Assembly (NCBI GenBank): GCA_951406725.2 | Contig: OX597829.1 | Span: forward strand, 34,534,001-34,598,000 | Reading direction: 5' to 3' | DNA: 64,000 nucleotides | From: Octopus vulgaris | Taxonomy: Eukaryota | In this document: in pieces, positions 4,187 through 41,217 of the stretch | How positions within the stretch are numbered: the first letter of the stretch is position 1 | Layout of the letters: every line of letters starts with the position of its first letter | Translations under genes and position numbers: made by a program | The notes under the pieces: generated by a model | Databases searched by the model: none | What the model was told of the DNA's origin: nothing | What the model saw: the letters and a program-made list of their open reading frames with translations, nothing else

Positions 4187-4319
4187 GCTTTTCAGTGATG
4201 TCGTACCTGTTTTGCAGCAGCTGAAAGAAATGGGCATGAAACACTACATTTATTCATCAGGAAGCATTGCAAGCCAAAAACTCCTTTTTTCTCACGTACC
4301 AGAAGGAAATATTATTGAT
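4187..4319 (+). CDS. ENOPH1: Enolase-phosphatase E1, internal coding exon
   Basis: tttag acceptor and gtgagc donor, phase-compatible with the previous exon. Translates (E)LFSDVVPVLQQLKEMGMKHYIYSSGSIASQKLLFSHVPEGNIID with HAD motif II YIYSSGS. Confidence 0.95.
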
Positions 4320-6564: not shown

Positions 6565-6565
<1 letters not shown>

Positions 6566-7092
6566 ACCTGTCCTCTGAACCACCCCTCCCACTGGTGCTC
6601 CCCTATATTTCTGCACCCCCCCACCACCATTATAGGTGTCTACTCTTTGAACCCCCCTCTTCAATACGCTATTTCACCATGCATTACCCCTCTCTCGATA
6701 TCCTACGTTCTACTTGCCTAGAACCTGTCCTCTGAACCACCCCTCCCACTGGTGCTCCCCTATATTTCTGCACCCCCCCACCACCATTATAGGTGTCTAC
6801 TCTTTGAACCCCCTCTTCAATACGCTATTTCACCATGCATTACCCCTCTCTCGATATCCTACGTTCTACTTGCCTAGAACCTGTCCTCTGAACCACCCCT
6901 CCCACTGGTGCTCCCCTATATTTCTGCACCCCCCCCACCTCCATTATAGGTGTCTACTCTTTGAACCCCCCTCTTCAATACGATATTTCACCATGCATTA
7001 CCCCTCTCTCGATATCCTACGTTCTACTTGCCTAGTACCTGTCCTCTGAACCACCCCTCCCACTGGTGCTCCCCTATATTTCTGCACCCCCC
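6565..7092. repeat. Minisatellite, about 157-bp unit, about 3.4 copies
   Basis: Unit AACCTGTCCTCTGAACCACCCCTCCC...TTGCCTAG restarts at about 6565, 6722, 6878 and 7036. Confidence 0.95.
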
Positions 7093-7338
7093 CAATAAAA
7101 AGCACCATCCGAACGTGGCCGATGCCAGACCCCTCTGGCACCTGTGCAGGTGGCACGTAAAAACACCCACTACACTCGCGGAGTGGTTGGCGTTAGGAAG
7201 GGCATCCAGCTGTAGAAACACTGCCAGACTAGACTGGAGCCTGGGGCAGTCCCGAGCTCCCCAGACCCCGGTCGAAGCCGTCCAACCCGTGCTAGCGCGG
7301 AAAACGGACGTTAAACGATGATGATGATGATGATGATG
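7093..7338 (+). mobile_element. RTE 3'UTR/SINE fragment with (GAT)n tail
   Basis: Reverse complement of the 5822 and 7717 copies, ending GGAAAACGGACGTTAAACGATGATGATG. Confidence 0.8.
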
Positions 7339-12125: not shown

Positions 12126-12378
12126 CGAAACTAATTGACTTACTGTAGTGAGTGATTCTTTCACTCTGCCTCCCACTTCTTCTTTCCACACAGACACGCA
12201 AATATATAAATAAAATTGTAAGCTAACGTGCGTGTGTGTGAATGGGTGGGTGTGGGTGTGCGCGTGTGTGTGTGTGTGAGGGTGCGTGTGTGTGTGTGTG
12301 TGTGTGTGCGTGTGCGTGAGTGTGTGACAGGAAAGTTTTTTTACGACGAATATAATACCTATATCCAAGTAGCAGAAA

Positions 12379-12863
12379 GATAAGACAGTAAGGTGTGATT
12401 TGAGGGAGATTTGGCTGCTATTTCTACCATGTCTAGCTGCCATGTAGGGGTCTCCCTCATAGGCTCATACATACATATATATATACATAGATAAGACAGT
12501 AAGGTGTGATTTGGGGGAAATTTGGCTGCTATTTCTACCAGGTCTAGCTGCCATGTAGGGGTCTCCCTCATAGGCTCATACATACATATATACATAGATA
12601 AGACAGTAAGGTGTGATTTGGGGGAAATTTGGCTGCTATTTCTACCAGGTCTAGCTGCCATGAGGGGTCTCCCTCATAGGCTCATACATACATATATACA
12701 TAGATAAGACAGTAAGGTGTGATTTGGGGGAAATTTGGCTGCTATTTCTACCAGGTCTAGCTACCATGTAGAGGTCCCCCTCATTGGCTCATATATATAT
12801 ATACATACATAAGACAGTAAGGTGTGATTTGAGGGAGATTTGGCTGCTGTTTCTACCAGGTCT
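12379..12863. repeat. Minisatellite, 106-111-bp unit, about 4.5 copies
   Basis: (G)ATAAGACAGTAAGGTGTGATTTG...TTTGGCTGCTATTTCTACC restarts at about 12379, 12490, 12597, 12703 and 12809. Confidence 0.95.
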
Positions 12864-15055: not shown

Positions 15056-17053
15056 AACTTAGAATAACTTAGAAAGGTTTTTGGCCAGTATTGGCCCAGG
15101 CCATGTCTAACTTAATAGCACCACCTGGCGAAGTCTTTCAGTTCAGGATTTGGGCACCAAGGCCCATTCGAGCAGAGAGTTATTGTTTGCGGAGACATAT
15201 CCGGGTGTGGATGGTTTGTCCGGTACTGTTTGAAGGAATTTGTCCAAAGACTTCTTGAATTTTGTGTGGTCAGTTTCTTTTTTGACGTGTCCTGGTGTAA
15301 TGTTGAAGAGAGCGGGTCCAATTGAGGTGAAATAGTTGTGCCGTATTGTCGTTATGTGATGCGATTTAGATTTTTGTTGTGGACGGATGGCACGTGGTCC
15401 AAGCCTTGGATGCATTTTGAAGGTGATGCCAACATCATTCGGACAGTGCTGATGGAATATTTTCCACATCATACAGATAATGTAGCGTTCACGGCGTCGT
15501 TGGAGTGAATACAATTTCAGCTTCTCTAGTCTACCCCAGTAGTCAAGGTCTGACATGCCATCTATCTTTTTTGTGATTGACCTTTGGGGAGCTTCAATTC
15601 TCATAATATTTTGTTTTGTGTAGGGAGACCACAGTGGACAGCAGTATTCAAGGTGGGGTCGGGCAAAAGTGGAGAAGAGAAGGATAATAGCGTGGGAATC
15701 TCTCGACTGGAAGGTTCTGAGAATCCAGGAACACATTCTGCGGGCCATGTCAACTTTGCTGCTTATATGTGTAGCCCAGCTTATGTTGTTGTCCACTGTT
15801 ACTCCCAGGTCTCTGATGTTGTTGGATGCCATGAGAATTTCTCCAGAAGGAAGAGAGTATGGGAGTTTCAGAGCGTCCTCCCTTCCAAAGTGGATCAGTT
15901 CGAATTTGTCTTCATTTAGCAACATGTTATTCTTTTCCGCCCATTGGACAACAGCCAGTAGGTCTGACTGAAGGTTTATTCGGTCATCCACGCCATTGAT
16001 GACCTTCTGGAGCTTGGAATCATCAGCGAAGGTTCTGATGTTGCTGTGTTTGATGGTGTCAGTAATATCATTTATGTAGATGATGAAGAGAAGTGGGCCC
16101 AACACAGTGCCTTGTGGGACACCACTGCTGACTTTGGCTGGGCTGGATTTGACTCCTTCGACTACAACATGTTGGGTTCTGTTAGAGAGGAAGCACTTGA
16201 TCCATTGCAGCAGCTTTCCAGTGACACCAATATTGGACAGCTTTCTCAGAAGGATCTTATGATCAACCCTGTCAAAGGCCTTGCTGAAATCAAGGTAGAT
16301 GACATCAGTGTTGGAACCCTCTCCCAAGGCTCTCAAAATGTCATCAAAATGATGCAGTAGCTGCGTCAGGCAATCTCTCCCATTACGGAATCCATGCTGG
16401 TTGGGGTTCAGCATATTATGACTCTCAAGGAAGTGAGTCATACGCGATCTCAGCACCCTCTCAAATACCTTGATGATATGAGAGGTGAGTGAGATTGGAC
16501 GGTAATTCACGGCAAGCGATTTGTTTCCTTTTTGAAAACTGGGACAACAGACTGGGATAGAAGGTCTTCTGGTATATATCCAGCATCCAATGAGTTCCGC
16601 CACAGATTGGCTAGAGGGGGTGCAAGTTGGTTTTGACACATCTTCAAGACACAAGCAGGGAACCTATCGGGACCTACTGCTGAATTATGCTTCATTTCCT
16701 TTATTGCTGCTAAGACATCAGGAGCGCCAAATGTTATGTCCGATAAAGTGTATTGGGGAGTAACATCACTGATACAGCCCAGATCAGTCATATCAGGATT
16801 GCTGAAAACAGAGCAATATTGTTTCTGCAATATTTCTCCCATGGTTTTGGCATTGTCTTGAAGAATACCATTTTCATCAATCAGAGGGCCAACAGTAGAA
16901 CCAGTGACTCTGTGTTTTTTTGCAAATGAAAAGAACACTTTGGGATTGAGTTTGATCTTCTCAATGGCCCAGGCCTCTTCAGCTCTTCGCTGGCTATTGA
17001 TGATAGACATCATGTTGTTTTGGATCATATATGTATTGATGATAGACATCATG
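15056..17053 (-). mobile_element. 5'-truncated non-LTR retrotransposon (CR1/L2-like) with near-intact reverse transcriptase
   Basis: NYRPISLTS, QHGFR, YLDFSKAFDRVDH, SGVPQGTVLGPLLF, FADD, RDLGV and RPHLEYC motifs. One frameshift near 16525 (VVPVFK/KGNKS). Short repeated tail (TTCTAAGTTA on the minus strand). Clade assignment is tentative. Confidence 0.92.
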
Positions 17054-19247
<2,194 letters not shown>

Positions 19248-19256
19248 TACCCTGTA

Positions 19257-19363
19257 ATTTCTTATACGATATACCGTTTCATCTGCTGATTAATGGTAAA
19301 CTAACCTGATTAAATTAAATCAAGCCAATCTTCCAAAGGCCCTCAGATTCTTCAGTAAGAAAT
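19257..19363 (-). ncRNA. Type I hammerhead ribozyme (copy 1)
   Basis: Reverse complement of 19923-20029. Confidence 0.85.
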
Positions 19364-19922
19364 AGCCCAAGTCGGAACAGATATTTTCACGAGGCATTTC
19401 CGACCTTGCCAAGGTTATATCTGACCTAAAATTTTCAAATCGTCGCACTCGCGCCAAATTTATCGGCAGCAAATAAATATAAGCCGTGGATTCCATTACG
19501 GAATTAACCAGAAAATTCATAATTAATCAATATACGGTGGCAAAAAAAAATTTTGTAGAATTCTTTTGCCACCAGCGGCCTAGTGGGAAAAAATTAAATA
19601 GTCATAGACCATTTTTAAGTTCAACATCAACAATCAAGGAACGGCCATAATAGGCCATTCACCCACTAGAAATAACAGCCAAAGCTTCAACCGCAAATAA
19701 AAATTAATTCCGTAAACCAGGAGAAAATTTAAAAAACATTTACCCTGTAAATGTATTGATTAATTATGAATTTTCTGGTTAATTCCGTAATGGAATCGAC
19801 GGCTTATATTTATTTGCTGCCGATAAATTTGGCGCGAGTGCGACGATTTGAAAATTTTAGGTCAGATATAACCTTGGCAAGGTCGGAAATGCCTCGTGAA
19901 AATATCTGTTCCGACTTGGGCT

Positions 19923-20029
19923 ATTTCTTACTGAAGAATCTGAGGGCCTTTGGAAGATTGGCTTGATTTAATTTAATCAGGTTAGTTTACCATTAATCAG
20001 CAGATGAAACGGTATATCGTATAAGAAAT
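19923..20029 (+). ncRNA. Type I hammerhead ribozyme (copy 2)
   Basis: Stem I AUUUCUUA/UAAGAAAU (8 bp), core CUGAAGA (19931-19937), stem II AUCUG/CAGAU enclosing 58 nt, GAAA (20006-20009), palindromic stem III ACGGUA/UAUCGU, triplet GUA. Predicted cleavage after 20021. Confidence 0.88.
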
Positions 20030-20414
20030 TACAGGGTAAATGTTTTTTAAATTTTCTCCTGGTTTACGGAATTAATTTTTATTTGCGGTTGAAGCTTTGG
20101 CTGTTATTTCTAGTGGGTGAATGGCCTATTATGGCCGTTCCTTGATTGTTGATGTTGAACTTAAAAATGGTCTATGACTATTTAATTTTTTCCCACTAGG
20201 CCGCTGGTGGCAAAAGAATTCTACAAAATTTTTTTTGCCACCCTATATTGATTAATTATGAATTTTCTGGTTAATTCCGTAATGGAATCGATGGCTTATA
20301 TTTATTTGCTGCCGATAAATTTGGCGCGAGTGCGACGATTTGAAAATTTTAGGTCAGATATAACCTTGGCAAGGTCGGAAATGCCTCGTGAAAATATCTG
20401 TTCCGACTTGGGCT

Positions 20415-20521
20415 ATTTCTTACTGAAGAATCTGAGGGCCTTTGGAAGATTGGCTTGATTTAATTTAATCAGGTTAGTTTACCATTAATCAACAGATGAA
20501 ACGGTATATCGTATAAGAAAT
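20415..20521 (+). ncRNA. Type I hammerhead ribozyme (copy 3)
   Basis: Same as copy 2, shifted by 492 bp. Predicted cleavage after 20513. Confidence 0.88.
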
Positions 20522-20761
20522 TACAGGGTAAATGTTTTTTAAATTTTCTCCTGGTTTACGGAATTAATTTTTATTTGTGGTTGAAGCTTTGGCTGTTATT
20601 TCTAGTGGGTGAATGGCCTATTATGGCCGTTCCTTGATTGTTGATATATATATATATATATATACCGGAGTAAACACATAAATGTGAAACAAGGTGGAAA
20701 AAAAGAGTACTCAAATACCAGTGGTAGAGTAATATGCTTTATTTAAAGCCGCAGAAAATTC

Positions 20762-20815
20762 AACAAAATCTGTTACTCTGAGTTTCTCGTTGCCGTTCAT
20801 CAGACAGTTTTTGTT
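20762..20815 (-). ncRNA. Minimal type I hammerhead ribozyme in a separate repeat fragment (about 20664-20820)
   Basis: Minus strand: AACAAAAACUGU-CUGAUGA-ACG(GCAA)CGA-GAAA-CUC(A)GAG-UA-ACAGAUUUUGUU. Stem I pairs at 11 of 12 positions; the base of stem II is an A.A mismatch. Confidence 0.75.
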
Positions 20816-21666
20816 AGAATGGAACCGATATATCAATTCAATCCAGACTCTTAAAAACGCTACACCTTTAAAAAATGGACTTGTTTGATTGGCCCTTTAG
20901 CAATAACGCTCAATCTTCGAGCGATAAACAAAAAATGAGCTCAAAAATATATATGTATATATATATATAAAAAAATTATAAAAATCGAGGAAAAACCTTA
21001 CATTGAATAAAATACATATTGACGTTAATGAAGGAAATATAATTAATACATGGAAATTAAAATGCATTATAAATATTACACTGCAATACATATTCATATT
21101 AAAGTGTACATATATATATCAACAAACACAGAAGGATGCGTGCAAACGCCATACATATACAGACGTATAAATATAAATCTAAAATATACACATAAATGCA
21201 TGCATACATATGTATACGCAATCTATCTCGCACGCAAGTTAAAATCATGGATGCTAATGTAGCGTTCCTTATTTACGGAGCAAAGCTTAAGACATAAGTA
21301 AGTGAGGGGGATGTAAAGTTGTATGCACCAGTATCATATAGTTAGAGAAAAAAACGAAAGAAAGGAAGAGAGAGAAAAAGGAACGAAGAAGAGGGAAGGA
21401 AAAAAAGAAAAAGGAGGGGTGGGGAAAAAACGAAATAAGAAAAATTTATGTATTTATGTGTATATATATATGTATGTATATTTATGTATATATATATATA
21501 TGTATGTATATTTATGTATATATATATATGTATGTATATTTATGTGTATATATATATATGTGTGTATATATATATATGTACATATATGTATGTGTATATA
21601 TATGTATATATATGTGTATATATGTATATGTATATATCTGTATATATATGTATATGTATATATATA

Positions 21667-24546: not shown

Positions 24547-24670
24547 CTATTCTCTGGATTTTTTGATACTCTAACTGGCAGTAAAGTGGAGAGTGAGAGT
24601 TACAAGAAAATAGTTGAAGAAGTAAATGTAAAAGCTGATGAAATTATGTTCCTTACAGATAATCCTAAAG
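24547..24670 (+). CDS. ENOPH1: Enolase-phosphatase E1, penultimate coding exon
   Basis: Translates LFSGFFDTLTGSKVESESYKKIVEEVNVKADEIMFLTDNPK (FDT..G.KVESESY and FLTD motifs). Ends AAG|gcaagt, a GC donor. Confidence 0.93.
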
Positions 24671-26035
24671 GCAAGTTTATATTTTATGTTTATTCTTTTT
24701 CTAATCTTTCACAGTAGGATGATTTTTTACTATTTTAGACAATAGCATATATGAGCAAGCATTTTTATAATACTGTAGGACATGGTGCTTGTAGACAAAC
24801 AGGCTGACTTTAGCATATGGAGTTATATTTCTTATCTTAGAGCTATAAATAGGACGAGCAAAACACTAGAAAAATCAAGGCTCTTAGGGTTTTAAGATGC
24901 ACATCACCTTTGCCAAATTAACTTTGTATTTATCAGGAAATAAAGCAGGCTCGGAATGTGAATAATAGATTCTCCCTTGTTGAGGAATATATCAATGCAC
25001 ACCTCAGAATAGGACTGTAGTTTGTAACTTCAGGTTGAAGGCAAAGAAAATTGGGAAACAAATGACAAATGAAAGAAAGATATGAGTTCTAAGAGATTTT
25101 ACTGTTACACTAAATTTCCATTTCATATTATATGTTCTCAACTTCATAGAGGTAGAGAACAAAGGGATTTTCTGTATGATATTGATAGTATTCACATGGA
25201 TAGAGCAATTCCATGCCAGGAGCAGATGATGATGATGAAGTAGAGCTAAAAGACCTAAGTGGTAGGCCTGGAAAGAGGAGAGTTGTAGGGGGCTAGGCTG
25301 GAAGAGCAATGATCAGTTTATCAAGATAGGATAGAAGCTAAGAGTAAATTTACAGGCAACAAAACAGTAAAATAGTATTGGGGATAAGGTTATAGTGACT
25401 GATGTGTAAAGGGTGACAAGAAGCGATATCAGGAATGACTAAATAAGAAGCTAAGTTTAGGTGGTTGATTGATGTTCTAAATAGTATAAGGATCATGTAG
25501 TATTTTCAATTGCAGATTATGTGTTTGTATGAAGTGGTAAGAAACATATGTGGTGAATAGAGGTTTTATGATATGAACTTGTCGAATAAGAAATAGAAGA
25601 GATAATGTAAGAACCTATATTTTGGGGAACCAATAGAGAGGTCACCTCAGACATGATTAATAAGACAACAAAGTAACTGAAATCAAAGGAAGTTATAGGT
25701 TACCTTGCTATAGCTGCTAAAATAATCTAAGCATATTATTGTGAGATATAAACAGTAGATGCAGATTTGCTGAAACTGGATACAATAGAATATGGTGAGT
25801 ATGAGGCAGTTGATGAATAATGTTAACCTGCATAAAAAATAACGCTAGTGATATGTGAAAGCTGCTGGACGTTCTCAGCATCGTCCAAAGTGTACTAGTA
25901 AGAAGACTATACTTTGTGATGGAAAGCATATGTTAAAAAATTACTTTAACTTATTATTGGAAATGTTAAACGTAGTGCCATTCTTGTGATGCTTTGTCAT
26001 AGTAATCCTTAATATGTTTTGCTTCTATTCAACAG

Positions 26036-40905: not shown

Positions 40906-40946
40906 TTGTGCTGATGATGTCTATTGAAGCAGAAACACGTCCACAA
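40906..40946 (+). ncRNA. Minimal type I hammerhead ribozyme (fourth family) in septin intron 1
   Basis: UUGUG-CUGAUGA-UGUCUAUUGAAGCA-GAAAC(AC)GUC-CACAA. GUC triplet, predicted cleavage after 40941. Stem I is extended by CUGGAGAUAGGGUUGGAC/GUCAACUUAUCUCCAG (40883-40964). Confidence 0.75.
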
Positions 40947-41217
40947 ATGTCAACTTATCTCCAGACAAGTTCTTTTTCTTCAGTGTGTGTGTGTGTGTGT
41001 CAGTTTTGAAGAATTTTTTGAATCTGGAGATTATCTCCCCTTCTCAGGTTGTGTTCTTGTTGTCACCTAGAGGTGAAGATAATTTTAATAATCAAAGATT
41101 TATGTTGTATGTTATTTGATGTCGGTATTTGTGTGTCTGTATGAATATGTGCAGGCACATATATTTGCGGATGTGTGTATATATGCATTCATATATGTCT
41201 ATAGATATGTGTGTATA

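Follow-up and report, generated by a model that had tools for sequence, protein, structure and literature searches.

A protein-free 492-nt hammerhead repeat of Octopus vulgaris with the insertion anatomy of Penelope-like elements

The stretch of Octopus vulgaris DNA analyzed here (64,000 nt of contig OX597829.1, positions 34,534,001 to 34,598,000 of the forward strand; hereafter the window) holds, within an intron of an ENOPH1-family gene, a head-to-head repeat carrying hammerhead ribozyme motifs. The locus raises the questions of how a repeat of this kind is mobilized and whether the copy in the intron can release a unit-length RNA. The explanation that we favor overall, with a confidence moderately above even, is that of a protein-free 492-nt hammerhead repeat that is inserted in TA microsatellites, likely by a Hydra-type Penelope enzyme, which in turn would likely copy a re-joined circular RNA.

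Within the 64-kb window, the repeat has a period of 492 bp, with about 1.8 copies in plus orientation and 1.0 in minus orientation. Mapping of the two arms, whose 5' ends meet at a 3-nt spacer, confirmed the head-to-head arrangement given in a preliminary description made from the sequence alone (1x on the minus strand, 19248-19750, and about 1.8x on the plus strand, 19754-20645). Unit positions are numbered from the base after the predicted ribozyme cut (20022 being position 1), and the element is composed as follows:

17056..19246, left TA-rich tract, 2.2 kb
19248..19750, minus strand, minus arm, 503 nt, starting at unit position 8 and continuing round to 17, without the long end (position 238) that is normal for the family
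19751..19753, 3-nt spacer at the head-to-head junction
19754..20645, plus strand, plus arm, 892 nt (1.81 units), from unit position 225 to 132, stopping at the family's short end against (TA)n
20022..20513, plus strand, cut-to-cut monomer, 492 nt, 35% GC, no ORF
20646..20664, right (TA)n target tract, common to the 3' end of an older Hydra-type Penelope fragment

The copies differ by few substitutions, as had been noted before: 3 over 400 nt separate the copies of the plus arm, and the minus arm is 99% identical to the plus arm, with one gap. The longest stop-free frame of the low-GC unit (35%) is 68 aa, in keeping with the earlier remark that the unit has no reverse transcriptase (RT), and the RT plus GIY-YIG ORF that marks an autonomous Penelope-like element is absent from it. 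The copy in the window is atypical in that its minus arm stops at unit position 17, where the family norm is 238. Repeat-finder output on the window was dominated by the TA tracts.

The older Hydra-type fragment (20661-21245, minus strand) is the 3' end of a Penelope element that is 83-85% identical to the young autonomous family N1 described below. It ends at the long end of N1, against the same right TA tract as the plus arm, and a minimal hammerhead can be recognized by eye near 20765-20812.

A motif scan of both strands of the 64 kb, with thresholds of at least 5 for stem I and at least 3 for stem II, identified three type I hammerheads, all inside the element. Each is made up of an 8-bp stem I, CUGAAGA, a 5-bp stem II, GAAA, a near-palindromic stem III and GUA; the core CUGANGA, GAAA and UH around three stems, with stem I open, is present in 3/3 units of the window. 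Their positions, together with that of a predicted structured domain referred to below, are:

19923..20029, plus strand, type I hammerhead 1, predicted cut after 20021
parts of hammerhead 1, plus strand: stem I 19923-30/20022-29; core 19931-37; extended helix II 19938-20005, followed by GAAA; stem III 20010-19
20415..20521, plus strand, type I hammerhead 2, predicted cut after 20513
19257..19363, minus strand, type I hammerhead 3, antisense to ENOPH1, predicted cut after 19265
20063..20282, plus strand, predicted structured domain closed by a long-range stem, enclosing both family end points (20153 short, 20259 long)

The claim of a complete type I hammerhead in each unit, with sense cuts after 20021 and 20513, thus stands with two amendments, since in the predicted fold helix II bears a 58-nt structured extension rather than a simple loop, and stem III includes one G-U pair. 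A hammerhead search, which the preliminary description had suggested, returned these three matches in the motif scan, whereas the 131 Rfam matches at E<=5 were microsatellite noise only and included no hammerhead model. A relaxed scan found one further minimal type I hammerhead motif in the window, at 40906-40950 on the plus strand.

The predicted fold of the monomer was more stable than 100/100 shuffles (z -4.4), and that of the ribozyme region more stable than 200/200 (z -3.4). Since the ribozyme fold is only 3.4 kcal/mol less stable than the minimum-energy structure of its 126-nt region, the ribozyme should be able to form as a monomer; stem III is predicted to pair between two copies as well. 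We infer that the domain at 20063-20282 may be the region at which RT starts. In the consensus fold of this domain, which holds both family ends, only 2/42 pairs show two-sided changes, weak support for the fold.

Two exons of the ENOPH1 family flank the element:

4187..4319, plus strand, exon upstream of the host intron
24547..24670, plus strand, exon downstream of the host intron

The two exons join in frame, which places the element within one 20.2-kb intron. The downstream exon seems to end at a GC donor (24670-24676). The same intron contains a 506-aa stop-free frame at 15143-16663 on the minus strand, and tandem arrays of 157 bp and 106 bp at 6565-7094 and 12378-12863, respectively.

According to the preliminary description, the two sense ribozymes would cut the ENOPH1 pre-mRNA and free a 492-nt monomer from this intron. 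Both are intact and lie on the strand of the gene, but release of a monomer needs two cuts, and in the pre-mRNA the antisense arm is transcribed before the sense arm. In the predicted nascent fold, 283 bp of pairing between 19248-19531 and 19755-20038 bury all 7 core bases of ribozyme 1, and in predicted full-length folds ribozyme 2 is buried in its place. Forcing both sense ribozymes to fold gives -834 vs -983 kcal/mol, a predicted cost of about 150 kcal/mol. Because the antisense arm pairs over a sense ribozyme, monomer release is unlikely unless transcription starts inside the plus arm; a promoter there, if any, would bypass the antisense arm. Moreover, the run in which a cut end was seen (X13, below) carries A2 alleles and not those of this copy. 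The proposed excision is therefore not supported by the predicted folds, and we consider release from the ENOPH1 intron improbable; the copy in this intron is likely a passenger whose antisense arm would block double cutting.

A possible trace of cutting comes from run X13, which is guessed to be RNA. One of its contigs has a loose end just before 20515, where letters of a template-switch oligo (recognized from PMC11846981) are followed by C. The run carries four alleles of subfamily A2, unlike the copy in the window, and in A2 a C, with a compensating G as its pairing partner, is the first base after the cut. The junction with the adapter thus falls exactly at the predicted A2 cut site, a hint of cutting in vivo that has no bearing on circles, on the strength of one contig from one guessed-RNA run among the loose ends listed. 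Coverage in three guessed-RNA runs was not locus-specific and ranks no locus.

In the genome searched (2.8 Gb, 227 contigs), a 25-mer of the ribozyme core has 808 exact copies. A motif of subfamily A2, whose unit is 93-94% identical, has 231, and a motif common to families A and B has 2459; the control gave 0 in each case. Family B has a unit of ~488 nt that is ~75% identical to the window unit. A search with the unit gave 225 matches at the best 40 scored of 930 candidates, and the full-length ones were nearly all 98-100% identical. Copies are spread over more than 20 contigs, and the unit, together with its short end abutting TA, also appears in contigs from a large independent run. The family is thus young and dispersed, and the copy-number check agrees with the youth ascribed to the repeat beforehand.

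Among 307 ribozyme motifs, 11 of the 50 haplotypes occur in at least two loci. In these recurrent haplotypes 164/165 pair cells are canonical, with two-sided changes in stems I, II and III. Position N7 is free to vary, and H17 is A or C in 306/307 motifs. The number of independent events is small, and most core letters are required by the search itself. Covariation of the stems across genomic copies, the absence of which the preliminary description had named as speaking against its reading, is accordingly found in all three stems, on few independent events. The combination of a C after the cut with the stem III of the window gave 0 pattern matches, and the variant exists with a different stem III. 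The core change U4C is present in all 35 family B motifs of that type counted (L071-L100 examined); family B gave 2570 first-look candidates. Beside an element of the autonomous family N4, at L353:5503-5609, lies a third relative of the unit, which shares 76% identity with family B. Runs X16-X20, which carry the labels of four other organisms, contain 0.32-0.53 of the words of the element.

Judged by its sequence, the element fits the definition of a metazoan non-LTR retrozyme (PMC7229834), which asks for a non-coding, low-GC tandem unit with a hammerhead in at least two consecutive units and dispersed multicopy occurrence. The non-coding tandem unit, the dispersed copies and the covarying ribozyme stems bear out the initial assignment to retrozyme/Penelope-like repeats.

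To what extent does the insertion anatomy point to the mobilizing enzyme? We mapped 81 loci, of which 40 were the top matches and 41 came from pattern lists (solo hits at 20, multiple copies at 21), a sample that leans to young copies because loci were chosen by best match or exact pattern. Two arms facing outward were found at 68/81 loci, and the other 13 are single-armed or fragmentary. At 59/60 loci with two regular ends, one arm ends at about +238 from the cut (long) and the other at about +132 (short), a pairing with a binomial p of 1e-16; the remaining divergent loci comprise 1 long+long, 0 short+short and 8 with one irregular end, the window included. TA lies on both sides of 70/81 loci. 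The same layout recurs in family B, where each of the 7/7 loci at which both ends could be scored pairs a long with a short end on opposite strands (8 more of the 30 loci have one scorable end and 15 have none). The 5' ends of the arms, by comparison, are spread round the unit. At five loci (L246, L257, L262, L268 and L274) the long-end arm is only 15-18 nt long and extends no farther than unit positions 221-224, where a predicted hairpin has its base, possibly a site of RT stalling.

In Penelope-like elements, tandem and inverted copies occur together and one end carries a tail (Craig et al. 2021, PMC8557442). Two RT start sites delimit this tail, and the protein, a predicted dimer, extends both strands (Frangieh et al. 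2024, PMC11167929). By analogy, the 106-nt gap between the +132 and +238 ends corresponds to the Penelope tail. Tandem and inverted 5'-truncated copies, a one-sided tail and microsatellite targeting, the marks of a Penelope-type insertion, are all present at these loci. The Penelope-like mobilization put forward earlier is strengthened by the 59/60 long+short loci and by the same layout on autonomous Hydra-type elements of this genome, and we regard the repeat as very probably a non-autonomous, Penelope-borne element.

Candidate helpers were sought with five protein queries, which led to families N1-N4; microsatellites are also favored by Naiad and Neptune elements (PMC8557442). Autonomous families in the genome number at least four; they are young, with intact ORFs of 727-899 aa and many equal-scoring copies (very young loci include L341-L346 and L353-L354 for N4, L221-L223 for N2 and L104 for N1). 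They carry RWK-like, DKT-like and CxCX5C motifs, clearest in N1 and N3; a Pfam search with an N1 fragment returned 0 families. By these motifs, which define that clade, N1-N4 match the Hydra clade, which is known to target (TA)n and to carry hammerheads. The families have two ends, and similarly extended helices II are found in the hammerheads of N2 and N4 (56 nt in N4, with a mostly U4C core). Very young N4 elements end at about +49 and about +200, and one such locus is two-armed, with a long and a short end; among 30 N1 loci, 4 have both a long and a short end.

No pLTR clearly homologous to the unit was found in the four Hydra-type families, which were sampled from tens of thousands of candidates. 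A weak gapped alignment of the unit with N1 beats 300/300 shuffles, but leaves the ribozymes out of register. Penelope fragments that adjoin copies of the repeat were considered as a linked helper and rejected, as they are separate insertions. Overall, a helper of the Hydra type appears somewhat more likely than not.

What template such an enzyme would copy can be approached through the arms themselves. Arms of one locus differ by 0.21% vs 1.78% after permutation (0/2000 permutations; 42/81 loci testable), and by 0.22% vs 1.39% within subfamily A1 alone, which indicates that both arms derive from one source. All 272/272 cut-site motifs have the same length and show no scars, and 42/54 long and 43/48 short arms cross a cut site. 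The template must thus have been circular or an uncut multimer, as a cut linear monomer cannot yield such arms. In addition, the distance from the cut is at most 10 nt for 12/108 arm 5' ends, where 4.4 are expected (p 0.0015), so that some templates may be cut linear RNA; most ends lie farther away.

The length and uniformity of the arms bear on the choice between circle and uncut multimer. Young subfamilies have arms of 8-14 units, one arm reaching ~14, and at one locus a single variant site was found in 11 full units. Among locus-private alleles at sites covered at least 3 times, 80 are singletons, 9 are fixed in all covering units and 8 are intermediate, where private refers to the 81 loci mapped, out of several hundred, and arms can also be homogenized by gene conversion. 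Minor variants recur with a period of 5 or 3 in three arrays: L065 and L067, on different contigs, have a common ordered five-unit pattern (T....T) counted from the long end, and L060 has a three-unit pattern. The arrays of L240 and L032 are irregular, non-periodic mosaics. These mosaics and the ordered pattern common to two loci imply that a monomer circle was not the sole template. Long uniform arms and periodic variants are explained by circles, small multimers included, and ordered patterns common to loci by uncut tandem transcripts. The latter agrees with a Poseidon element, for which uncut RNA is the main substrate in vitro and no RNA-seq ends were found at the cut site (PMC11167929). 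On balance, the sequence evidence modestly favors a circular template.

Taken together, these results suggest a model in which tandem arrays would be transcribed and the transcript cut by its hammerheads, the one adapter-marked end being in support of cutting, and in which a host ligase would close monomers and small multimers into circles. A Hydra-type Penelope enzyme would nick both strands of (TA)n, and two cDNAs would start on the same RNA, one at +238 and the other at +132. Each would roll round the template and stop at a near-random point, and joining of the two 5' ends would create the head-to-head arms. In its most specific form, in which a dimeric Hydra-type enzyme primes both microsatellite strands on one ribozyme-made circle, with its subunits at +238 and +132 and rolling round, the model is tentative and in our judgment falls short of an even chance. 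If true, a genome would for the first time record an animal retrozyme circle being retrotransposed by a rolling-circle route, and this very young family would provide a minimal 492-nt substrate for Penelope two-site priming.

The same element and a Penelope-type enzyme could also act on uncut linear read-through of a tandem array, with unequal crossover growing the arrays and the ribozyme only trimming ends. The in vitro preference of the Poseidon protein, the pattern common to L065 and L067 and the mosaics of L240 and L032 are in its favor, and scar-free junctions fit it equally well. However, copying alone would only shorten arrays, yet the arms of young subfamilies are many units long; the nine private alleles have reached fixation throughout their arrays, a covarying ribozyme is retained in a unit that is non-coding, and the periodic variants also fit small multimer circles. 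We therefore regard an uncut linear template as rather unlikely.

Far less room is left for readings that dispense with a non-autonomous element. The ends and the ribozyme resemble pLTRs, and the unit might be no more than a truncated pLTR from an autonomous Penelope element that has yet to be seen. This is already largely refuted, since arms pass through many complete, ORF-free 492-nt units, family B retains its whole ~488-nt unit, and no contiguous Penelope ORF was found in 101 family A loci, among them 20 chosen for a solo ribozyme hit, or in 30 family B loci; the latter result upholds the earlier preference for a retrozyme over a pLTR, and we consider the pLTR reading very improbable. Because the locus adjoins the 2.2-kb low-complexity tract and its left end is irregular, one might suspect a satellite, an artefact of assembly or LINE twin priming. 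Against these origins stand the dispersal over more than 20 contigs with fixed ends, the contigs of the independent run, the absence of poly(A) and the rule of one long and one short end, which matches Penelope tails, so that we find them scarcely credible. The reading that we retain is the Penelope-borne hammerhead repeat set out above.

Animal non-LTR retrozymes have been argued to be non-autonomous Penelope derivatives (Li, Clavereau and Pollet 2026, bioRxiv 10.64898/2026.07.22.740005), and the octopus repeat shares many of their features (Cervera and de la Pena 2020, PMC7229834; bioRxiv 10.64898/2026.07.22.740005). These include a non-coding tandem unit with one type I hammerhead each and GC <45%, a short palindromic helix III, a self-paired monomer, arrays from dimers to multimers, and co-existing Penelope elements, which are proposed there as helper or origin. 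At 492 nt the unit exceeds the 150-450 range of PMC7229834 and lies inside the 51-972 range of the bioRxiv report. Unlike these retrozymes, the octopus unit has a helix II with a 58-nt extension, and its head-to-head arms with two fixed ends are absent from the main-text descriptions in both papers. For the published retrozymes, cleavage in vitro and circles have been shown, whereas the octopus unit is known from sequence, and large target-site duplications are unreadable in (TA)n here.

With endonuclease-bearing Penelope-like elements of the Hydra clade (PMC8557442; PMC11167929; Cervera and de la Pena 2014, PMC4209133), the repeat has in common 5' truncation, tandem plus inverted copies, a one-sided tail, (TA)n targeting and a type I hammerhead upstream of two ends. 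It differs from them in the absence of an RT-endonuclease ORF, in having up to 14 units per arm, and in that no pLTR homology to a helper was found; its tail is 106 nt long, compared with the usual 30-40 of Penelope elements and with ~70 and ~150 in autonomous families present in the octopus genome. MRC1 and other non-autonomous Chlamys elements (PMC8557442) are likewise protein-free Penelope parasites with insertions of multiple copies head to tail, and with pLTRs. Their 3' ends, however, resemble those of autonomous partners, and their clade mostly has no hammerheads, whereas here the ribozyme is central and no partner was matched.

We found no paper on a cephalopod retrozyme in the literature searched; Repbase, Dfam or supplements may hold the family. 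The suggestion of an undescribed family has to be narrowed as to kind, as elements of this kind are already described in published retrozyme/Penelope work. Who mobilizes animal retrozymes, and whether their circles serve as templates, has been proposed but not demonstrated in the literature consulted. The class, its Penelope link and the two start sites are already published, and what this family adds is an unusually clean footprint. The strictness of this footprint (59/60), variants that can be traced unit by unit, and intact, very young Hydra-type neighbors make the questions of helper and circle directly testable with a 492-nt RNA.
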